From UHGV virus genome UHGV-1790783: 30,347 nt of DNA, one strand, 5' to 3'. Positions 1,928 through 9,064 of the stretch are shown one piece after another; within the stretch, counting starts at the first letter, position 1, and each line of letters opens with the position of its first letter. This stretch comes from a virus. Below the pieces are notes generated by a model, which worked only from the letters and a program-made list of their open reading frames with translations, did no database searches and had not been told where the DNA came from. The position numbers and the translations under genes were made by a program.

Positions 1928-3487
1928 TTACTCTCTATTTAAAACAGTGAAATCGAATGTGCTGCCAACCGGCAAGACCCCCTCGGCAAACCCAGGCGTC
2001 GTGTCGATAATGTGTTTCCGCTCATATGAATGCGACATGAGGTATTTGTTGCTCACGTCGATGAAGTCGGTAATAAAGCACACGTTAGCCTGATTCTTTT
2101 TGGCTCGAAGACCGCGGCCCACACGTTGACGCATCTCCACTTCGGCTTTGCCGCCACCACCCAGAATCACAGCGCCTACGCTTGGAACGTCGACACCAAC
2201 ATCCAGAATGGTTGAACCAATGAGAACATCTATCTTGCCTACCGCCAGACTATTAAGTTTTGCTTGTCGGGTAGTCTGGTTTGATTCTCCGTAGATGAAA
2301 TCGACCTTGAGGCCACTCTCTTTCATCATTTCCATCAAGATCTGACCATGACGCTTCAGACGAACCAATGTCATACAGTTCAGACCGTGACTTTTGTACA
2401 TTAACGCTTCGCGCACAATAGCCTCGTTGCGGCCCAGATTGTAAACGATGCCTAACTGATAGGCTTTCTGGTAAGCCGTACTCATTCCAACCCGAAAGTT
2501 CAGGTGTTTCGAAGCAAGTTCGGCCCTAATCCGCACCTCGTCTGGAGTGTACGCGATTTTATGATATAGAAAGTAGGGTTTCGCTAAAATACCTCGGTCG
2601 ATCAAATATTTCTCCGTTACTTTTATCTCGATGCGACCCGCAACGGCCATGAGACGCATATTTGCTTCAGTCGAGTCCTTCATGAACGGCGTTGCTGTCA
2701 GCGCCAGACGGTAGTCGGCATTGATGCACAACCGGGCGATGTCGTAGAAGTTAGAACCAGATGATTCGTGTGCCTCTTCCAGAATCAGCAGAGAAACGCT
2801 GGACAGGAAGCGTTTAACCAGTTCCCGGCGCTTCAGGTGGTACTGTTTTTTCTCCGGTGATGCGTCGCGCGGTGGCTCTTCGAGAAAACTGGCCAGGGTC
2901 TGCACCGTGGCAACGTTGATATGGCGCGAGACCTGGAACTCACCCGATCCAATCACCCCAACTCTCTGACCTTTCAGCCACGGCTCGCCATTCTCCGCGC
3001 GGTAGTCGATGGATTTCTGGAAGTTCTCTGCCATCTGGAACATCAGAACCGATCGCGTGGTTAAAAACAGCGTCATACGACCAATGCGAGCAGCAGCCTT
3101 ACACGCTACGTTCGATTTACCGCCACCCGTCGCAATCTGGGCAATCATCATCCCTTCGCGCACCAGTGTTTCCACTGTCTGATCCTGATACGCATAGTCC
3201 GGGTTATACGGGAATGGGTTAACTACCGGGTTCGGCTTGCCCAGCGCGGGGGCTTTTTCCTTGCGCACATGCACGCATTTGATGCCAGCTTTCAGAAGGT
3301 TGGCTGCAACTGGCTTCGCAAACCCAGCCGGGAACGCGTTTTTGCTCCAGTTGAACATCGTGCTGGTTCCTTTCCAGTCCCCAGCCTCCACTTCATAGCT
3401 CAACATCTCCTGAACGAGCCGCTTCACGTTGTCATCAGCGCCAGAAATCAGCGCATTGACTGCATTCGATACAATCCGAACTGTCAT
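1928..3487 (-). CDS. Superfamily-2 DNA/RNA helicase (DEAH-type, ResIII-like phage replication helicase)
   Basis: ORF track 519 aa. Motif I ATGGGKS, motif II LILEEAH, motif III LALTATP, C-terminal motif VI QRVGRGLR. Strong SD (AAGGAAAGAGG) upstream of the ATG at 3487. Confidence 0.9.
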   Translation of the reverse strand: MTVRIVSNAVNALISGADDNVKRLVQEMLSYEVEAGDWKGTSTMFNWSKNAFPAGFAKPVAANLLKAGIKCVHVRKEKAPALGKPNPVVNPFPYNPDYAYQDQTVETLVREGMMIAQIATGGGKSNVACKAAARIGRMTLFLTTRSVLMFQMAENFQKSIDYRAENGEPWLKGQRVGVIGSGEFQVSRHINVATVQTLASFLEEPPRDASPEKKQYHLKRRELVKRFLSSVSLLILEEAHESSGSNFYDIARLCINADYRLALTATPFMKDSTEANMRLMAVAGRIEIKVTEKYLIDRGILAKPYFLYHKIAYTPDEVRIRAELASKHLNFRVGMSTAYQKAYQLGIVYNLGRNEAIVREALMYKSHGLNCMTLVRLKRHGQILMEMMKESGLKVDFIYGESNQTTRQAKLNSLAVGKIDVLIGSTILDVGVDVPSVGAVILGGGGKAEVEMRQRVGRGLRAKKNQANVCFITDFIDVSNKYLMSHSYERKHIIDTTPGFAEGVLPVGSTFDFTVLNRE

Positions 3488-3569
3488 AAACCTCTTTCCT
3501 TCGTGCCTTTTGTATGGTAATTGGCTATTATAGTAAGTAAGTACTTATACAATAGATTGTATCAGAATT
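3488..3569. promoter_or_regulatory. Divergent intergenic control region between helicase (leftward) and ParB-like operon (rightward)
   Basis: 82-bp gap between divergently oriented genes. Contains TAGTAAGTAAGTACTTATAC (3531..3550) with the perfect 10-bp palindrome TAAGTACTTA, and a perfect TATAAT on the minus strand (plus 3527..3532) suitably placed for the helicase. -35 elements are weak. Confidence 0.5.
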
Positions 3570-4250
3570 ATGGATGTGAAAATTACGATTCTGCAGGTGG
3601 AAGTCGCGAACCTGCGTCCGAATCCCTGGAATACCAACTCCGTTGGGGCGCAAAACTTCGAAAAACTGAAAGGCTCTATCGAAAAATTGGGCTTTTTTAA
3701 GCCAATTCTGGCGCGGGAGTTGGACGGGGGCATTTTTGAGATCCTCGGTGGTGAACACCGCTGGCGTGCCGCGATGGAGCAGGGCATTTCAACGGTTCCC
3801 GTCATCTCCGTGGGCAAAATTAACGACCTGGTGGCCAAACAGATGTCCCTCGTCGACAACGAGCGCTACGGCGAAGACGATCAGGTCGCTTTGCAGCGCT
3901 TAATCGAAGAAATCCAGTCTGAAATCGACTACCGGTTGTCCGATATCGCCCCGTATGACGACGAAATGGCGGCAACACTCGCCAAAGCGTCCGTTATCGA
4001 TCTTGAAGCGCTGGAAGCGCTCTCCCGTGGCGATGACGAGCCGGTCGATGAGGACAAACGCGAGAAAACCGAGCGAGTCGGCGCTGAACACCAGACGATG
4101 CGCTTCAAGGTGACGTTTGATGCGTCAGATCGGGTCGCCGACACCATCAAAACCATCATCAAAGAGCAGGGAATCAATACCGGTAACGAAATGGAGAACG
4201 CCGGGGAAGCCCTGGTGTGGCTGGTCGACTACTACAAGGAGCGTATGTAA
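3570..4250 (+). CDS. ParB/sulfiredoxin-like nuclease-domain protein (paralogue 1)
   Basis: ORF track 226 aa. ParB N-terminal motif ILGGEHRWRAA preceded by LRPNPWN. Stop overlaps the next start (TAATG). Confidence 0.8.
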   Translation: MDVKITILQVEVANLRPNPWNTNSVGAQNFEKLKGSIEKLGFFKPILARELDGGIFEILGGEHRWRAAMEQGISTVPVISVGKINDLVAKQMSLVDNERYGEDDQVALQRLIEEIQSEIDYRLSDIAPYDDEMAATLAKASVIDLEALEALSRGDDEPVDEDKREKTERVGAEHQTMRFKVTFDASDRVADTIKTIIKEQGINTGNEMENAGEALVWLVDYYKERM

Positions 4251-4918
4251 TGACCAAAAACTTTGAAATCGTCTATCGAAACCCGGCAGAACTCATCCCG
4301 TATGAGATGAACGCCAAAAAACATGACGAACAGCAGATCCGCGATCTGGCGGCCGCCATCAAAAAGCGCGGTTTTGACCAGCCGATCACGGTCGACAAGC
4401 ACGACGTCATCATTACTGGCCACGGTCGTCGCGAGGCGGCTCTTCTGGCTGGTCTGGAGCGTGTGCCGGTCATTGTTCGCGACGATCTGAGCGAAGAAGA
4501 AGTGAAGGCTAAGCGTCTGGAAGACAACCGCCTGGCCAGTATTGACTACGACGCCATCAAATTGCAGCAGGAACTGGAATCCCTGGTGCTGGGCGACGTC
4601 GAGGTCTTCGGTTTTGAAGAGCGCGAGCTGAACGTGCTTGTCGGCAGCATGACCGAAGAGATGGAAACCGGCTCTCTGGTGCTCGATCTGGGCGAAGAGA
4701 CGGAGCGCCAGAAGGAAGAGCACACCGAGATCAGTCGCGAAGTGGCCTCTGAAGAAGTCCGCGTCATCGACGTATTGGGCTTTAAAACGCTCCCTGCTGG
4801 CTCTGCCATTGTGGTTGGGGATTTGCTTGCCCACATGGAAGAAATCACGGGAGAGAGCGGGGTAGACGCTTTCGTGGCGTATGCGGAGAAAGTTTCTTCT
4901 GGGGAGCTGGCCGCATGA
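4250..4918 (+). CDS. ParB/sulfiredoxin-like nuclease-domain protein (paralogue 2) with acidic C-terminal half
   Basis: In-frame ATG at 4250 inside track ORF 4217..4918. ParB-type motif IITGHGRREAA. Stop overlaps the next gene's ATG (ATGA). Confidence 0.8.
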   Translation: MTKNFEIVYRNPAELIPYEMNAKKHDEQQIRDLAAAIKKRGFDQPITVDKHDVIITGHGRREAALLAGLERVPVIVRDDLSEEEVKAKRLEDNRLASIDYDAIKLQQELESLVLGDVEVFGFEERELNVLVGSMTEEMETGSLVLDLGEETERQKEEHTEISREVASEEVRVIDVLGFKTLPAGSAIVVGDLLAHMEEITGESGVDAFVAYAEKVSSGELAA

Positions 4919-5553
4919 GCAAATACACCATCAACGTATCGTTTCAGACCCGCGTGAACAAAACCACGCGCACGCTGGAGATTGCCGAATCGTTCGGTCT
5001 TGGCCTGGACGAAAAAGAGTGGACGCTTTACGACAATCTGGAGCTGGAAGTGAAGCAGGGCGATGTGGTGTACATCACCGGCCAATCCGGTTCCGGTAAA
5101 TCCGTTGTGCTGCGCGAGCTGCAACGCCAGATGAAGGATGAAGGGCTTTCTGTAGCCTCCATCGATGACTTTGCCTTCGACAATGAGGTTAACGTCATTG
5201 ACCAGCTGGGCAAAACCACCAGCGAAGCGCTGGGGCTGCTGTCTATGGCCGGATTGAATGACGCCTATCTCTTTGTGCGTAAGCCATCCGAGATGTCTGA
5301 CGGCCAGAAATACCGTCTCAAGATCGCCAAGCTGATCGAGTCCGGCGCGAAAGTCTGGGCTGCCGACGAATTTGGCGCTGTTCTCGACCGTGTAACCGCC
5401 CAGGTTGTGGCGTCGAACCTCCAGCGTGCCGCCCGTAAGGTTGGTGCGACGGTAATGGTGGCGACGACCCACGAAGACCTGAAGAACGCGCTGCGCCCGG
5501 ATATGCAGATCACCAAGCACTACAAAGAACGCGTGAAGGTGGAATATGCCTGA
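4915..5553 (+). CDS. Stand-alone ABC-type ATPase (single nucleotide-binding domain)
   Basis: ORF track 212 aa. Walker A GQSGSGKS, Q-loop-like IDQLG, ABC signature-like SDGQKYR, Walker B VWAADEFG, H-loop-like ATTHED. No transmembrane partner in the operon. Confidence 0.75.
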   Translation: MSKYTINVSFQTRVNKTTRTLEIAESFGLGLDEKEWTLYDNLELEVKQGDVVYITGQSGSGKSVVLRELQRQMKDEGLSVASIDDFAFDNEVNVIDQLGKTTSEALGLLSMAGLNDAYLFVRKPSEMSDGQKYRLKIAKLIESGAKVWAADEFGAVLDRVTAQVVASNLQRAARKVGATVMVATTHEDLKNALRPDMQITKHYKERVKVEYA

Positions 5554-5800
5554 TTTGAAGATCGTAGAGCTGAAGCCATCGAAAGAGACTGACAACAACA
5601 ACGTTGAAGTCATCCGCCTGCTGGAAGAAGCACTCCAGTACGCAAGAGAAGGCAAAAGTCAGAGCCTGGCTCTGCTGATGATCGACAACGACGGCAATGT
5701 TATGGATTGCTGGCATAACGGTGGGCGTCCATACGTCATGGTTGGGGCGATGGAATCGCTTCGCCTGGACTTCATCAATGCCAATATCGAGCGTAGGTGA
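5546..5800 (+). CDS. Small hypothetical protein (84 aa)
   Basis: ORF track 84 aa, ATG overlaps the ATPase stop by 8 nt; no recognisable motif. Supported mainly by operon context. Confidence 0.45.
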   Translation: MPDLKIVELKPSKETDNNNVEVIRLLEEALQYAREGKSQSLALLMIDNDGNVMDCWHNGGRPYVMVGAMESLRLDFINANIERR

Positions 5801-5805
5801 TCGAC

Positions 5806-6696
5806 ATGACAGGCATCATCATCAAACGCTACCGCCCGGAAGAGTTCCCGCGTCATCTGGACTTTCTGGAGCGTATGACCGTTACCAAAGGCACGGTTGA
5901 AGACTGGCACGCGCTGAAGTCGCTGCACTACAAGACGGATGGTAAGCCGTTCGCGCCAACGTATTATCGCTGCGAACTGGACGACCGGCTGGTGGGCGTC
6001 GTGGTTATGGCTTACCCGAAACTGCTGCTGGCGCCTCGCCATCGCATGTTTCCTAAGCTGAAGCCAACCACCAATACCACCGTGGCCAACCAGTATTGGG
6101 GCCGGTACGTGAACAACAACTTTGCCGTGATCAGCCGTTCCGTTGTTGACACTCAGTACCGCGGTGTCGGCGTCTCCTATCGAATGATTAACCTGGTTAG
6201 CAGGATGCACGACCGGCCAATCATCGAGATCCAGTCGTCGATGAGCAAATACAACCCGTTCGCCATGAAAGCAGGGTTCCAGTTCATCCGTCCGGAGCGT
6301 CCGAAGAGCTATGAGAGTGCGTTGCGCGTCTTCCAGCGTCATTTCCGTTCTGACCCTGGCGACAACGAAGCGATCGTCAAAGAGCTGTTCGCCATGAGTG
6401 AGTCTCGCCGTCGTCGTGCGCTGCGTGATCTGGTCGCTGACTACCACAAGAACAGTTCCCTGGCCAAAGCCGGGCGTAATCGTGGCACGACGATTCAGGA
6501 CATTGCCGACAGCCTGGTGGACGAGGCCAGCACCGTGAAGCTGCTCAAGGACATTCACAACCTGAGCTTCACGTCTCCGCTGTATGGCGTGTACCGAAAC
6601 CCGGACTTTGGTCGTCAGCTGCCGGACACGCTGCCACTGCTGGCATTCGACAAACAGCCTTTGAATAAACCTCTTGAAATTGCATTACCGGCATAA
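5806..6696 (+). CDS. GNAT-like acyltransferase-fold protein with ~130-aa C-terminal extension
   Basis: ATG at 5806 (AGGTGA SD 8 nt upstream) within track ORF 5797..6696. Segment FAVISRSVVDTQYRGVGVSYRMINLV matches GNAT motif A (R/Q-x-x-G-x-G/A after a hydrophobic strand). Motif-level inference only. Confidence 0.55.
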   Translation: MTGIIIKRYRPEEFPRHLDFLERMTVTKGTVEDWHALKSLHYKTDGKPFAPTYYRCELDDRLVGVVVMAYPKLLLAPRHRMFPKLKPTTNTTVANQYWGRYVNNNFAVISRSVVDTQYRGVGVSYRMINLVSRMHDRPIIEIQSSMSKYNPFAMKAGFQFIRPERPKSYESALRVFQRHFRSDPGDNEAIVKELFAMSESRRRRALRDLVADYHKNSSLAKAGRNRGTTIQDIADSLVDEASTVKLLKDIHNLSFTSPLYGVYRNPDFGRQLPDTLPLLAFDKQPLNKPLEIALPA

Positions 6697-6705
6697 GGAT
6701 TTGCC

Positions 6706-6972
6706 ATGACGTTGACCGACAAACAAAAAGACATCATCAAAACCATCAATTTAGGCCATGAGCGTGGGCATCTGCTCGATCTGGACGAGCTGCTTGAAGT
6801 GCTGCCGTACAAAACGACCAAACAGAGTATGCAGTTCTCTATCCGCGCACTGGTGAAAAAGGGGCTGGTGGAGAAAGGAATGTGCCGCCAGCGCGGTGAT
6901 TCCGGCTACCACCGTCGCACGCTGGGACTGACCACGTTAGGTCGTGCCAGAGCCAAATTACTGGTGATGTAA
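6706..6972 (+). CDS. Small basic protein, putative winged-helix DNA-binding regulator
   Basis: ORF track 88 aa, SD TAAGGA upstream. Lys/Arg-rich with a helix-turn-helix-like segment (TTKQSMQFSIRALVKKGLVEK). Low-specificity inference. Confidence 0.45.
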   Translation: MTLTDKQKDIIKTINLGHERGHLLDLDELLEVLPYKTTKQSMQFSIRALVKKGLVEKGMCRQRGDSGYHRRTLGLTTLGRARAKLLVM

Positions 6973-6997
6973 GTCGGTCTGGGAGCCAGTTTGAGAG

Positions 6998-7048
6998 CCT
7001 GCTTCCGTATATATAAATAGTGACTTATTAAATATATACGGAGGCAGG
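6998..7048. repeat. Large imperfect inverted repeat (17-bp arms, 17-nt AT-rich loop) between the accessory operon and terS
   Basis: Seen in sequence: CCTGCTTCCGTATATAT ... ATATATACGGAGGCAGG, one mismatch that is a G-U pair in RNA. No adjacent T-tract, so not a classic terminator. Confidence 0.7.
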
Positions 7049-7163
7049 TTCTGAATACTCCCCAGCCCGGTTTTAAACACCCAGAAAACAAATTGGTTAG
7101 GCACTGAATTAAACAAGTTGTTTAGGAGCGCAAGGATGCGCTCTGAGTGTTTTAGAGGGATCT

Positions 7164-7805
7164 ATGACTGTAGAAAAAGACGAGAGCAAAACTCGCCTGA
7201 CACCAGCTGAGTGGGCAGAAGCCGAAGCGAAGTGGACTTCCGGCGAATACACACTCTCCAGGCTGGAGGAAGAGTACGGCATTCGTCGTGAAACGCTCTC
7301 CAGACATTTCAAAAAGCGTGGATTAGAGAAAGGCGCGGACTCCGTTGGGAAGATGGTGCGCGAGTCGCTCAAATCCGACGCAGAGCTGCGTGCGAAGGCG
7401 CGTGCAGAGAAAATCGAAGAGCGCCGGACTCGTTACGACGATTGGGCGTTCGCACTCGGTCGTATGGTGATGCATGAGGTGGCCACAGCCAAGAAGGACG
7501 GCAGGCCACTGGCAGCCATCGAAGATGACCTGAAGAGTCTCCAGCGTGCCAGCGGCACACTCGCTAAGTGCTTCGAAATATCGTCGAAAGCGCTCGGTAT
7601 GGATCGCGTGGAGAACGAGGACGACGAAATCCCGAACCTGGTATTTGGCGAACTTACGCCTTCCCAGGTGGCGCAGCTGCGTAAGGAAGATGATGAGCCG
7701 GATCTGATTGATGACGATCTGCTTGAGTCACTCGAAGAGGAAGCACTGAGCGAAGCTGAGGGCGATTCTGAAGCGTCTGGTGATGAAAGTGATGGGAGCG
7801 TCTGA
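7164..7805 (+). CDS. terS: Terminase small subunit (putative)
   Basis: ORF track 213 aa, immediately upstream of and coupled to the large terminase; HTH-like N-terminus, highly acidic C-terminus; SD AGAGGGA. Call by position and composition. Confidence 0.65.
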   Translation: MTVEKDESKTRLTPAEWAEAEAKWTSGEYTLSRLEEEYGIRRETLSRHFKKRGLEKGADSVGKMVRESLKSDAELRAKARAEKIEERRTRYDDWAFALGRMVMHEVATAKKDGRPLAAIEDDLKSLQRASGTLAKCFEISSKALGMDRVENEDDEIPNLVFGELTPSQVAQLRKEDDEPDLIDDDLLESLEEEALSEAEGDSEASGDESDGSV

Positions 7806-7807
7806 CT

Positions 7808-9064
7808 ATGGCCATCCCGTCGTCTCTGAGTCTCGTACAGCTGCATTCTGGGCAGATGCAAGTCTTCCAGTCGCCACATCGTTTCAAAGTGGTGTGTGCG
7901 GGTCGACGCTGGGGTAAATCCCGGTTGTCGATCTCCACCATCATCCGCGCGGCAGCCAAAGAGAAGAAGCAACGTGTCTGGTACGTCGCACCGACTTACC
8001 AGATGGCTCGCCAGATCTTGTGGGATGACCTGCAGGAAGTTCTGCCGCGCAAATGGGTTCGTAAGAAAAACGACACCACGATGACCATCGTGCTGAAGAA
8101 CGGCTCTGAAATCGCGCTGAAAGGTGCGGATAAGCCCGATACGCTTCGTGGTGTGGCACTGCACTTTGTGGTGCTCGATGAATTTCAGGATATGAAGCCT
8201 GACACCTGGTACAAGGTACTGCGTCCGACACTGTCCTCCACCCGTGGCGGTGCGCTGATCATCGGTACGCCAAAAGGCTTCTCCGAGTTCCACAAGCTGT
8301 GGACTATCGGTCAGAACAAAGATTTGCAACGCAAGGGGCAGTGGAAGAGCTGGCAGTTCGTTACGGCCGATTCTCCGTTCGTACCGAGCGCGGAAATCGA
8401 AGCAGCGAAGAACGATATGGACCCTAAATCGTTCGCACAGGAATACCTGGCCAGCTTCGAAAACATGTCCGGACGCGTTTACTACCCGTTCGACCGCAAT
8501 GTGCATGTGAAGCCACTCCAGTTCAATCCGAAACTGCCGATCTGGGTTGGTCAGGACTTCAACATCGACCCTATGTCATCGGTCATCCTGCAGCCGCAGC
8601 CAAATGGCGAGTTGTGGGCCGTGGACGAGGTTGTGCTGTTCTCTTCCAACACGGCTGAAGTGTGTGATGAGCTGGAGCGCCGTTTCTGGCGCTGGAAGTC
8701 TCAGGTCACTATCTTCCCTGACCCGGCAGGTGCGTATCGCCAGCACGCACGCGGCGAATCGGACGTCGATATCTTCAAGGAAAAAGGTTTCCTTCGAGTC
8801 GATTATCCGAAGAAGCACCCGCCGATCGCAGACCGTGTTAACGCAGTGAACCGCATGTTGATGAGTGCCTCGGGCGAAACCCGGTTGTACATCGATCCGA
8901 AGTGCAAACACCTCATCGACTCGCTGGAGAAGGTGATCTACAAGCCAGGCTCACGCGATATGGATAAGACTGGCGGCATCGAACACAGTGCGGATGCGTT
9001 GGGTTATCCGGTTCATCGTAGGTATCCGGTTAAAAATCGTGTTATTCTTGGTGGATCTAGATAG
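7808..9064 (+). CDS. terL: Terminase large subunit (ATPase + nuclease)
   Basis: ORF track 418 aa. Walker A VVCAGRRWGKS, Walker B HFVVLDEF, C-terminal acidic nuclease-type segment VGQDFNIDP. Confidence 0.9.
   Translation: MAIPSSLSLVQLHSGQMQVFQSPHRFKVVCAGRRWGKSRLSISTIIRAAAKEKKQRVWYVAPTYQMARQILWDDLQEVLPRKWVRKKNDTTMTIVLKNGSEIALKGADKPDTLRGVALHFVVLDEFQDMKPDTWYKVLRPTLSSTRGGALIIGTPKGFSEFHKLWTIGQNKDLQRKGQWKSWQFVTADSPFVPSAEIEAAKNDMDPKSFAQEYLASFENMSGRVYYPFDRNVHVKPLQFNPKLPIWVGQDFNIDPMSSVILQPQPNGELWAVDEVVLFSSNTAEVCDELERRFWRWKSQVTIFPDPAGAYRQHARGESDVDIFKEKGFLRVDYPKKHPPIADRVNAVNRMLMSASGETRLYIDPKCKHLIDSLEKVIYKPGSRDMDKTGGIEHSADALGYPVHRRYPVKNRVILGGSR

Follow-up and report, generated by a model that had tools for sequence, protein, structure and literature searches.

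The DNA analysed here, a 30,347-nucleotide (nt) stretch from the UHGV virus genome UHGV-1790783 (hereafter the window, meaning this whole stretch), carries a 3.4-kb operon of six plus-strand genes situated between a divergent helicase gene and the terminase genes (Table 1). We refer to these six genes, numbered in order, as the module; they encode two ParB/Srx-like proteins (ParB1 and ParB2), a soluble ATP-binding cassette (ABC) ATPase, a small protein, a GNAT-fold protein, and a winged-helix DNA-binding protein. A previous sequence-only reading had singled out the same co-oriented, closely packed genes as a candidate novel accessory system, and all six open reading frames (ORFs) were confirmed, with its motif assignments for the ParB/Srx-like pair, the ABC ATPase, the GNAT, and the DNA-binding protein each passing profile or structure tests.

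Table 1 Features of the module and its immediate surroundings (positions count from the first nucleotide of the window; aa, amino acids; SF2, superfamily 2; NBD, nucleotide-binding domain).
Feature	Position	Strand	Matches and remarks
SF2 helicase (DEAD/ResIII, UvsW-like)	1928..3487	-	Pfam DEAD, ResIII, Helicase_C; divergent conserved neighbour
ParB1, gene 1, ParB/Srx (CTPase-fold), 226 aa	3570..4250	+	ParB_N, phrog_723
ParB2, gene 2, ParB/Srx, 222 aa	4250..4918	+	ParB_N, phrog_930
Gene 3, minimal soluble ABC ATPase, NBD only, 212 aa	4915..5553	+	ABC_tran, phrog_293
Gene 4, 84-aa protein in variable cargo slot	5546..5800	+	phrog_796 only
Gene 5, GNAT-fold acyltransferase (predicted), 296 aa	5806..6696	+	phrog_886; alternative GTG start 5797
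Gene 6, winged-helix (MarR/PadR-like) DNA-binding protein, 88 aa	6706..6972	+	phrog_900
Inverted repeat, 24-nt arms, AT-rich centre	6991..7055	.	Gap between module and TerS
Small-terminase-like protein (TerS)	7164..7805	+	phrog_867, E 1.6e-106
Large terminase (TerL), 416-aa orthologue called Terminase_6N	7808..9064	+	Conserved downstream neighbour; portal next

The window shares 98.5% identity with SSU5, a Salmonella phage that grows on laboratory strains and belongs to a phage-plasmid lineage, and ~84–86% identity with Escherichia coli and Klebsiella phage-plasmids. Because the six genes are already annotated in the SSU5 record and all six products fall into PHROG families, the gene set itself is not new but present in databases, and the pairing of a GNAT with an ABC ATPase had also been predicted earlier; the claim of a novel gene set does not stand. 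Matching records label the genes as ParB-like proteins, as ‘ABC transporter’, and as ‘ABC-type ATPase fused to a predicted acetyltransferase domain’, and none of the PHROG families of the module has a function that is based on experiment. The earlier view that the module could not be assigned to a named system was borne out by the lack of any named or experimentally characterised match in PADLOC, NCBIfam, and PDB. Two known types of system were considered and rejected. For an anti-phage defence system, PADLOC returned generic ATPase, methyltransferase N-terminal, and winged-helix matches but no system. A GNAT toxin-antitoxin pair of the TacAT/AtaRT type would have a short GNAT toxin behind an RHH/DUF1778 antitoxin gene; here the GNAT is 296 aa long, a winged-helix gene follows it, neither DUF1778 nor a toxin family was matched, and the gene persists as part of the core, in lytic phages too.

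Genes 1 and 2 meet in a TAATG (stop 4248–4250, start 4250–4252), genes 2 and 3 in an ATGA (4915–4918), and genes 3 and 4 overlap by 8 nt (ATG 5546–5548, TGA 5551–5553), all as read before. Gene 5 could start at GTG 5797, in a GTGA overlap, or at ATG 5806, the latter being the likelier start because an AGGTG ribosome-binding site (5795–5799) precedes it by six bases, and a 9-nt gap with an AAGGA Shine-Dalgarno sequence lies ahead of the gene 6 ATG. These overlapping or nearly abutting junctions had been taken as the sign of a single unit, but the structural genes downstream of the module have spacings of −17 to +74 nt, so that tight spacing alone is not unusual within the window, and the case for one functional unit rests instead on conserved linkage and natural gene fusions. 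A simple scan of positions 3300–7400 found no sigma-70-like promoter. Just before the start of gene 1, within the 82 nt that separate it from the divergent helicase gene, a 10-nt inverted repeat at 3544–3565 (CTTATACAAT / ATTGTATCAG) may be an operator.

The conserved linkage is apparent from 32 diverse loci surveyed across alpha-, beta-, and gammaproteobacteria, every one of which has the order helicase (minus strand), ParB1, ParB2, ABC, GNAT, usually winged helix, TerS, TerL, and portal. The helicase is directly upstream and divergent in 30 of these loci, the other two being short partial contigs that do not reach that side, and TerS/TerL lie directly downstream in all loci whose sequence extends that far. 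We regard the helicase as a conserved neighbour and at most a candidate member of the module. Homologues of gene 5 at ~40–50% identity were found in Dyella, Hyphomonas, and many other Proteobacteria, and carriers include Faunimonas, Magnetospirillum, Massilia, Paracoccus, Photobacterium, Xenorhabdus, and Yersinia pestis, many on contigs of ~100–118 kb. The module is also found in cultured phages of 105–122 kb (Pseudomonas phage nickie and its relatives, Rhizobium RHEph10-like phages, Stenotrophomonas ANB28, and Xanthomonas JGB6), and in full within a chromosome of Dyella (93–114 kb of a 4.99-Mb genome). Five of the six genes match terminase and portal in persistence, which makes the module a core element of its lineage and not, as had been supposed, an accessory one.

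Gene 4 is the sixth gene, and no match to it was found in Pfam, NCBIfam, PADLOC, or PDB. Of 80 close relatives, 39 have it, 20 lack it, with the ABC and GNAT genes abutting, and 21 carry a ~540-nt insert in its place; it is likewise absent in phage Cyrano, and a 183-aa gene takes its place in a Klebsiella phage. In distant relatives the same slot is occupied by a Tad2-like anti-Thoeris protein, a thioredoxin, a PNKP-type HAD phosphatase, an N4 gp49-like protein, a HExxH-motif protein, or small membrane proteins. Because the slot has three states in close relatives and holds other genes in distant ones, gene 4 is cargo and no core part, and what had been described as a six-gene system, although all six genes are present, is a module of five core genes and one variable slot. 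The ABC–GNAT slot is an insertion hot spot (window 5546–5800; loci L085, L091, L093, L099, L104, L105, L109, L113, and L114). Small genes occur at two further positions in relatives of the module. Alphaproteobacterial loci encode a conserved acidic protein of ~120–145 aa between ParB2 and ABC (L085 5136–5510, L088, L089, L090, L104, L106, L107, and L108), and a relationship of gene 4 to these proteins was dropped, their hidden Markov model having missed gene 4 even at E 10. Mostly alphaproteobacterial relatives carry, between the two ParB genes, a four-cysteine protein of 48–63 aa that is not found in the window (CxxC...CxxC followed by GE[FL]FEE; L085 4277–4468, L089 4457–4645, L091 4100–4285, L092, L096, and L098), and a 53-aa ORF occupies this position in phage nickie.

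Natural gene fusions tie the ATPase to the GNAT. A profile search with gene 5 against 1.84 billion representative proteins gathered 908 cluster representatives, the nearest of which are stand-alone proteins of ~290–325 aa. In the next large set, of ~440–500 aa, the gene-5-like region starts near residue 200–240, and all ten of the longer relatives sampled have an N-terminal ABC_tran domain. Gene 3 is 24–30% identical to the fused ABC–GNAT proteins of cultured phages, and the fusion was confirmed in gp17 of Leptospira phage LE3 and gp2 of Gordonia phage Axumite. Genes 3 and 5 are the two parts of what many other phages encode as a single fused protein, a relation that the earlier description of the ATPase as ‘stand-alone’ conceals. 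Wide protein searches with gene 3 and with gene 6 showed close relatives only among the matches listed.

In other phages the genes around the fusion follow a recurring pattern, with a ParB gene in front and often terminase behind. LE3 has the order ParB, ABC–GNAT, three small genes, TerL, and portal, and the ParB–ABC/GNAT pair is found in the lytic Leptospira phages LE3/LE4; Axumite has ParB, ABC–GNAT, a formyltransferase-like gene, and terminase; and Rhodococcus phage Jace has ParB, a 364-aa ATP-binding protein matching gene 3, and an aspartate decarboxylase. In Pseudoalteromonas SL25 the gene 3 match falls in an unannotated stretch directly upstream of TerL, in Nonlabens P12024S an ABC–GNAT gene sits amid primase and helicase genes, and in Enterococcus 9184 an ABC gene sits amid polymerase genes. 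The formyltransferase-like gp3 of Axumite (L117 1805–2452), annotated as ‘tRNA-methyltransferase’, and the aspartate decarboxylase gp87 of Jace (L118 5601–6026) could possibly contribute extra steps or donor supply, by analogy with multi-step hypermodification. SF2 helicases occur near the ABC–GNAT genes of Nonlabens P12024S and Tenacibaculum pT24, and were set aside as specific relatives of the window helicase, the similarity being generic to SF2. Four distant relatives of gene 5 are unusual ABC–GNAT fusions (P0285, P0293, P0318, and P0274), two of which (P0293 and P0318) are fused to a family-B DNA polymerase, and the fusions also include one with a LAGLIDADG intein inside the ATPase and one with a TFIIB-repeat tail.

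Catalytic motifs are intact in all four core proteins across 26–39 homologues (26 for the ParB and ABC motifs). ParB1 (ParB_N, E 8.7e-14 in Pfam; phrog_723, E 2e-85) aligns to Spo0J (1vz0) across residues 7–155 and keeps GGEHR and DNxRYGE motifs, while its paralogue ParB2 (27% identity over the full length; ParB_N, E 9.3e-9 in Pfam; phrog_930, E 3e-115) has an invariant GHGR motif, and both retain the arginine-containing GxxR and DNxR motifs. Residues 2–157 of ParB2 match the N-terminal module of phage ParB–DNA methyltransferases (phrog_498, E 2e-32; PADLOC MTase_II, E 6.5e-18). In gene 3 (ABC_tran, E 4.9e-13 in Pfam), the Walker A (GxSGSGKS), signature (SDGQ), Walker B (AADEF..LD), and H-loop (TTHE) motifs are all conserved. 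The operon encodes no membrane-spanning partner for this ATPase, and no membrane protein is conserved in it; the nucleotide-binding domain is present alone, and its partner is the GNAT, which is not the composition of an ABC transporter. Because gene 5 has no ATPase domain and gene 3 no membrane partner, the label ‘ABC transporter (ATP-binding subunit)’ attached to both genes (PHROG 293/886, GenBank) is misleading and should be corrected in databases. Gene 5 combines a GNAT fold at residues ~20–165 with a family-specific helical C-terminal domain, and gene 6 gave no significant sequence match in PDB.

The reading we favour, plausible though somewhat short of probable, is that the module is a ParB-guided, ATP-driven, multi-subunit acyltransferase acting on the phage’s own DNA. 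The folds, the intact catalytic motifs, the conserved linkage, and the natural fusions are directly seen; we infer that DNA is what the enzyme acts on, which donor supplies the acyl group, and that the phage gains protection from restriction. In the proposed mechanism, the paralogous ParB1 and ParB2, with their ParB/Srx nucleoside triphosphate (NTP)-binding fold, would bind DNA and recruit or activate the enzyme, a role modelled on phage thymidine dioxygenases and ParB–methyltransferase fusions. The ABC ATPase would dimerise on ATP and cycle the GNAT subunit on and off the DNA, the GNAT would move an acyl group, probably from acyl-coenzyme A (acyl-CoA), onto the exocyclic amine of a base, and the winged-helix protein would provide site specificity or regulate the operon. 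The modified DNA would then be packaged and would resist host nucleases. The RNA cytidine acetyltransferases TmcA/NAT10 offer a parallel for a GNAT whose action on a nucleic-acid base depends on an attached ATPase; there, however, the ATPase is helicase-like rather than of the ABC type and the substrate is RNA, so that the parallel is an analogy, with homology limited to the GNAT fold.

Several features of the module and its relatives point to DNA as its working surface, namely the ParB proteins, the winged-helix protein, the fusions to DNA polymerase, and the terminase contexts. The family-B DNA polymerase added to some ABC–GNAT fusions would place the enzyme itself on DNA. DNA modification in particular is favoured because a ParB gene precedes the ABC–GNAT gene in the unrelated phages LE3, Axumite, and Jace, and because the matching region of ParB2 is closest to the module found in phage ParB–DNA methyltransferases. 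The additional enzymes beside the core in Axumite and Jace also favour it, since such neighbours recall multi-step hypermodification pathways. ParB is often fused to DNA methyltransferases in phages, ParB–acetyltransferase fusions exist (PMC12704722), and a ParB protein has been shown experimentally to activate a phage DNA-modifying enzyme in the ParB-dependent thymidine dioxygenases (5mYOX; PNAS 2026, PMC13229309). In these dioxygenases and in the methyltransferase fusions, as in the window, a ParB/Srx protein stands beside or is fused to a post-replicative DNA-modifying enzyme, which it is needed to activate in the known cases, whereas the catalytic partner in the window is a GNAT with an ABC ATPase.

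The closest precedent is a prediction. Aravind’s group has predicted that a GNAT with an ABC ATPase forms a DNA-base acyl-modification system, exemplified by Tenacibaculum phage pT24 (Iyer et al. 2021, Viruses 13:63, citing Iyer et al. 2013 NAR), whose ABC protein is 30% identical to gene 3 (E 2e-11). The window shares with this phage-borne system a GNAT-fold enzyme and a small ABC ATPase with intact motifs, adjacent or fused; two ParB/Srx genes lie beside them in the window, and the single-gene fusions of other phages are homologous to genes 3 and 5. It differs in that two separate genes encode the ATPase and the GNAT, a C-terminal domain of ~130 aa extends the GNAT, and two ParB paralogues, a winged-helix protein, and a cargo slot interrupting the operon are added. 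With the same reserve as for the function itself, the module may thus be seen as a split and expanded version of the predicted ParB plus ABC-ATPase/GNAT systems for DNA-base acylation.

A further comparison is offered by Mom of phage Mu, a GNAT-fold enzyme that carries out Gly-tRNA-dependent modification of DNA adenine, and in which alanine mutants of H58 or Y59 have drastically reduced activity (Nat Commun 2026, PMC13219725). The nearest viral structural matches of the gene 5 model include Mom, and we compared the Mom active-site residues H58, Y59, R111, S124, D149, R151, and Y159 with gene 5. In a weak profile–profile alignment (P 0.0028), the invariant H41–Y42 pair of gene 5 falls on the invariant H58–Y59 pair of Mom, in both proteins near the N-terminus, and an invariant R111 of gene 5 is placed in the strand before the cofactor loop, where the sequence pattern and the predicted secondary structure, rather than a superposition, suggest its equivalence to that of Mom. 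Both enzymes are encoded in a late region beside packaging genes, and some Mom homologues have a ParB gene in front. In contrast, the inferred loop position reads PRNSES in Mom and R119-G-x-G122-x-[S/A/G], a CoA-type loop, in gene 5, and Mom acts alone whereas gene 5 is tied to an ABC ATPase. Because gene 5 keeps this CoA-pyrophosphate loop, where Mom differs and uses glycyl-tRNA, acyl-CoA would be a likelier donor than tRNA. In Microbacterium phage Appa (L129 1969–3228), a ParB-like gene, a Mom-like acetyltransferase gene, and a tRNA-Gly(ccc) gene occur together, an order that fits the Gly-tRNA dependence of Mom and shows the pairing of ParB with Mom-type enzymes.

A number of results weigh against the proposed DNA acyltransferase. 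Between the gene 5 profile and the Mom alignment, hhalign gave a probability of 10.9% (P 0.0028) over 37 columns only, and with Mu Mom alone an E-value of 0.3, which is not significant; the serine at the inferred position of Mom S124 varies between S, A, and G and thus has no conserved counterpart in gene 5. A tblastn search with gene 5 did not reach phage pT24, and the literature searched contains no report of modification of SSU5-type DNA. GNATs, moreover, more often acetylate proteins or small molecules. Membership of gene 5 in the Mom family was accordingly rejected at the sequence level; no window protein matched the Mom PHROG, a PDB sequence search with the gene 5 profile returned no match, and a first hhalign pairing with Mu Mom was judged spurious, the cofactor loop of gene 5 having been set against a different segment of Mom. 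That gene 5 works like Mom is a reasonable lead from the residue pattern; that it is a Mom is not supported.

Of the three roles originally entertained, DNA modification or anti-restriction is the best supported, ahead of host takeover and of a part in packaging. The strongest competitor, which we consider plausible but unlikely, is a protein acetyltransferase, in which the ABC–GNAT complex would acylate a host or phage protein (a nucleoid protein, a polymerase, or a defence factor) in the service of host takeover, anti-defence, or replication control, and the ParB and winged-helix proteins would only localise the complex on DNA. The GNAT fold cannot reveal the substrate, most characterised GNATs modify proteins, as does Rac of phiKMV-like phages (PMC7824862, PMC5512222), gene 5 retains its CoA-type loop, and the operon slot gathers anti-defence cargo such as Tad2. 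Set against this, the ParB and winged-helix proteins, the polymerase fusion, and the terminase linkage point to DNA, the closest viral structural matches of gene 5 are of the Mom type and not protein acetyltransferases, and it would be unusual for a host-specific takeover factor to persist, from alpha- to gammaproteobacteria, as steadily as terminase and portal do.

Somewhat less likely again is a packaging-site accessory complex, in which the ParB proteins, possibly as nickases, and the winged-helix protein would organise or process DNA at a palindrome for the terminase, with the ABC–GNAT in a supporting role. This would account for the position of the module directly upstream of TerS/TerL in all surveyed loci that extend to that side and upstream of terminase also in LE3, Gordonia phages, and Pseudoalteromonas SL25, as well as for the long palindrome that lies between the module and TerS, within a 190-nt gap (6973–7163). 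The SSU5 GenBank record ends at window position ~7030, inside the palindrome loop, and the Cyrano record ~5 nt away. Comparable GC-flanked, AT-rich palindromes of different sequence occupy the same position in Hyphomonas (L003), Dyella (L002), and loci L099, L102, L105, and L086. Rfam yielded no family match, and the literature searched on SSU5 genome ends and on phage-plasmid surveys provided no functional data; the palindrome may mark a packaging (cos/pac) site or the physical end of the genome, act as a terminator, or reflect an assembly break. Adjacency to terminase is nevertheless not specific to packaging, as phage DNA-modification genes have ParB neighbours in 27% and terminase neighbours in 19% of contigs (PMC13229309), so that the position fits DNA modification equally well. 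In Nonlabens P12024S and Enterococcus 9184, moreover, the ABC(–GNAT) genes lie among primase, helicase, and polymerase genes and not near terminase, a family-B DNA polymerase forms part of some fused relatives, and a packaging complex leaves no role for an acyltransferase with conserved catalytic residues.

The plasmid pMT1 carries a separate P1/P7-type par system, which counts against a role of the module in plasmid partition. Such a role, with the ParB proteins binding a centromere and an unusual ATPase assisting, is very improbable: the two proteins share with ParABS the N-terminal NTP-binding fold and the GxxR and DNxR motifs, ParB1 aligns to Spo0J, and many carriers are phage-plasmids of ~110 kb (PMC7969092), but the operon lacks a ParA-type ATPase, neither ParB protein reaches the TIGR00180 partition-protein cutoff in NCBIfam (39.4 and 46.9 bits against 58.45), the pairing also occurs in the lytic phages LE3/LE4, and the full module is also found chromosomally integrated, as in Dyella.

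The module is a real and deeply conserved unit in an already annotated phage, and of a kind predicted earlier in silico. Returning to the favoured reading of a DNA acyltransferase, it is possible, at a lower level of confidence than for the general function, that an ATP- and ParB-dependent acyl-CoA:DNA acyltransferase writes an undescribed acyl mark on SSU5/pHCM2/pMT1-type phage-plasmids and their ~110-kb proteobacterial relatives, and, just as tentatively, that the simpler fused versions would act likewise in phages of Actinobacteria, spirochaetes, and Bacteroidota. If true, an ABC ATPase would for the first time be seen to drive a DNA base modification, and GNATs would have a second route to DNA modification after Mom. 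Phage DNA modification would then gain both a new chemistry and a new type of enzyme architecture; in that field, the mechanism of Mom and the ParB-dependent dioxygenases were worked out only in 2026. Common and of clinical relevance, the carriers include SSU5/pHCM2-type Salmonella plasmids, Yersinia pestis pMT1, and Klebsiella and E. coli phage-plasmids, and a DNA mark that goes unnoticed on them could have consequences for restriction barriers, for the spread of plasmids, and for methylome calls based on sequencing.

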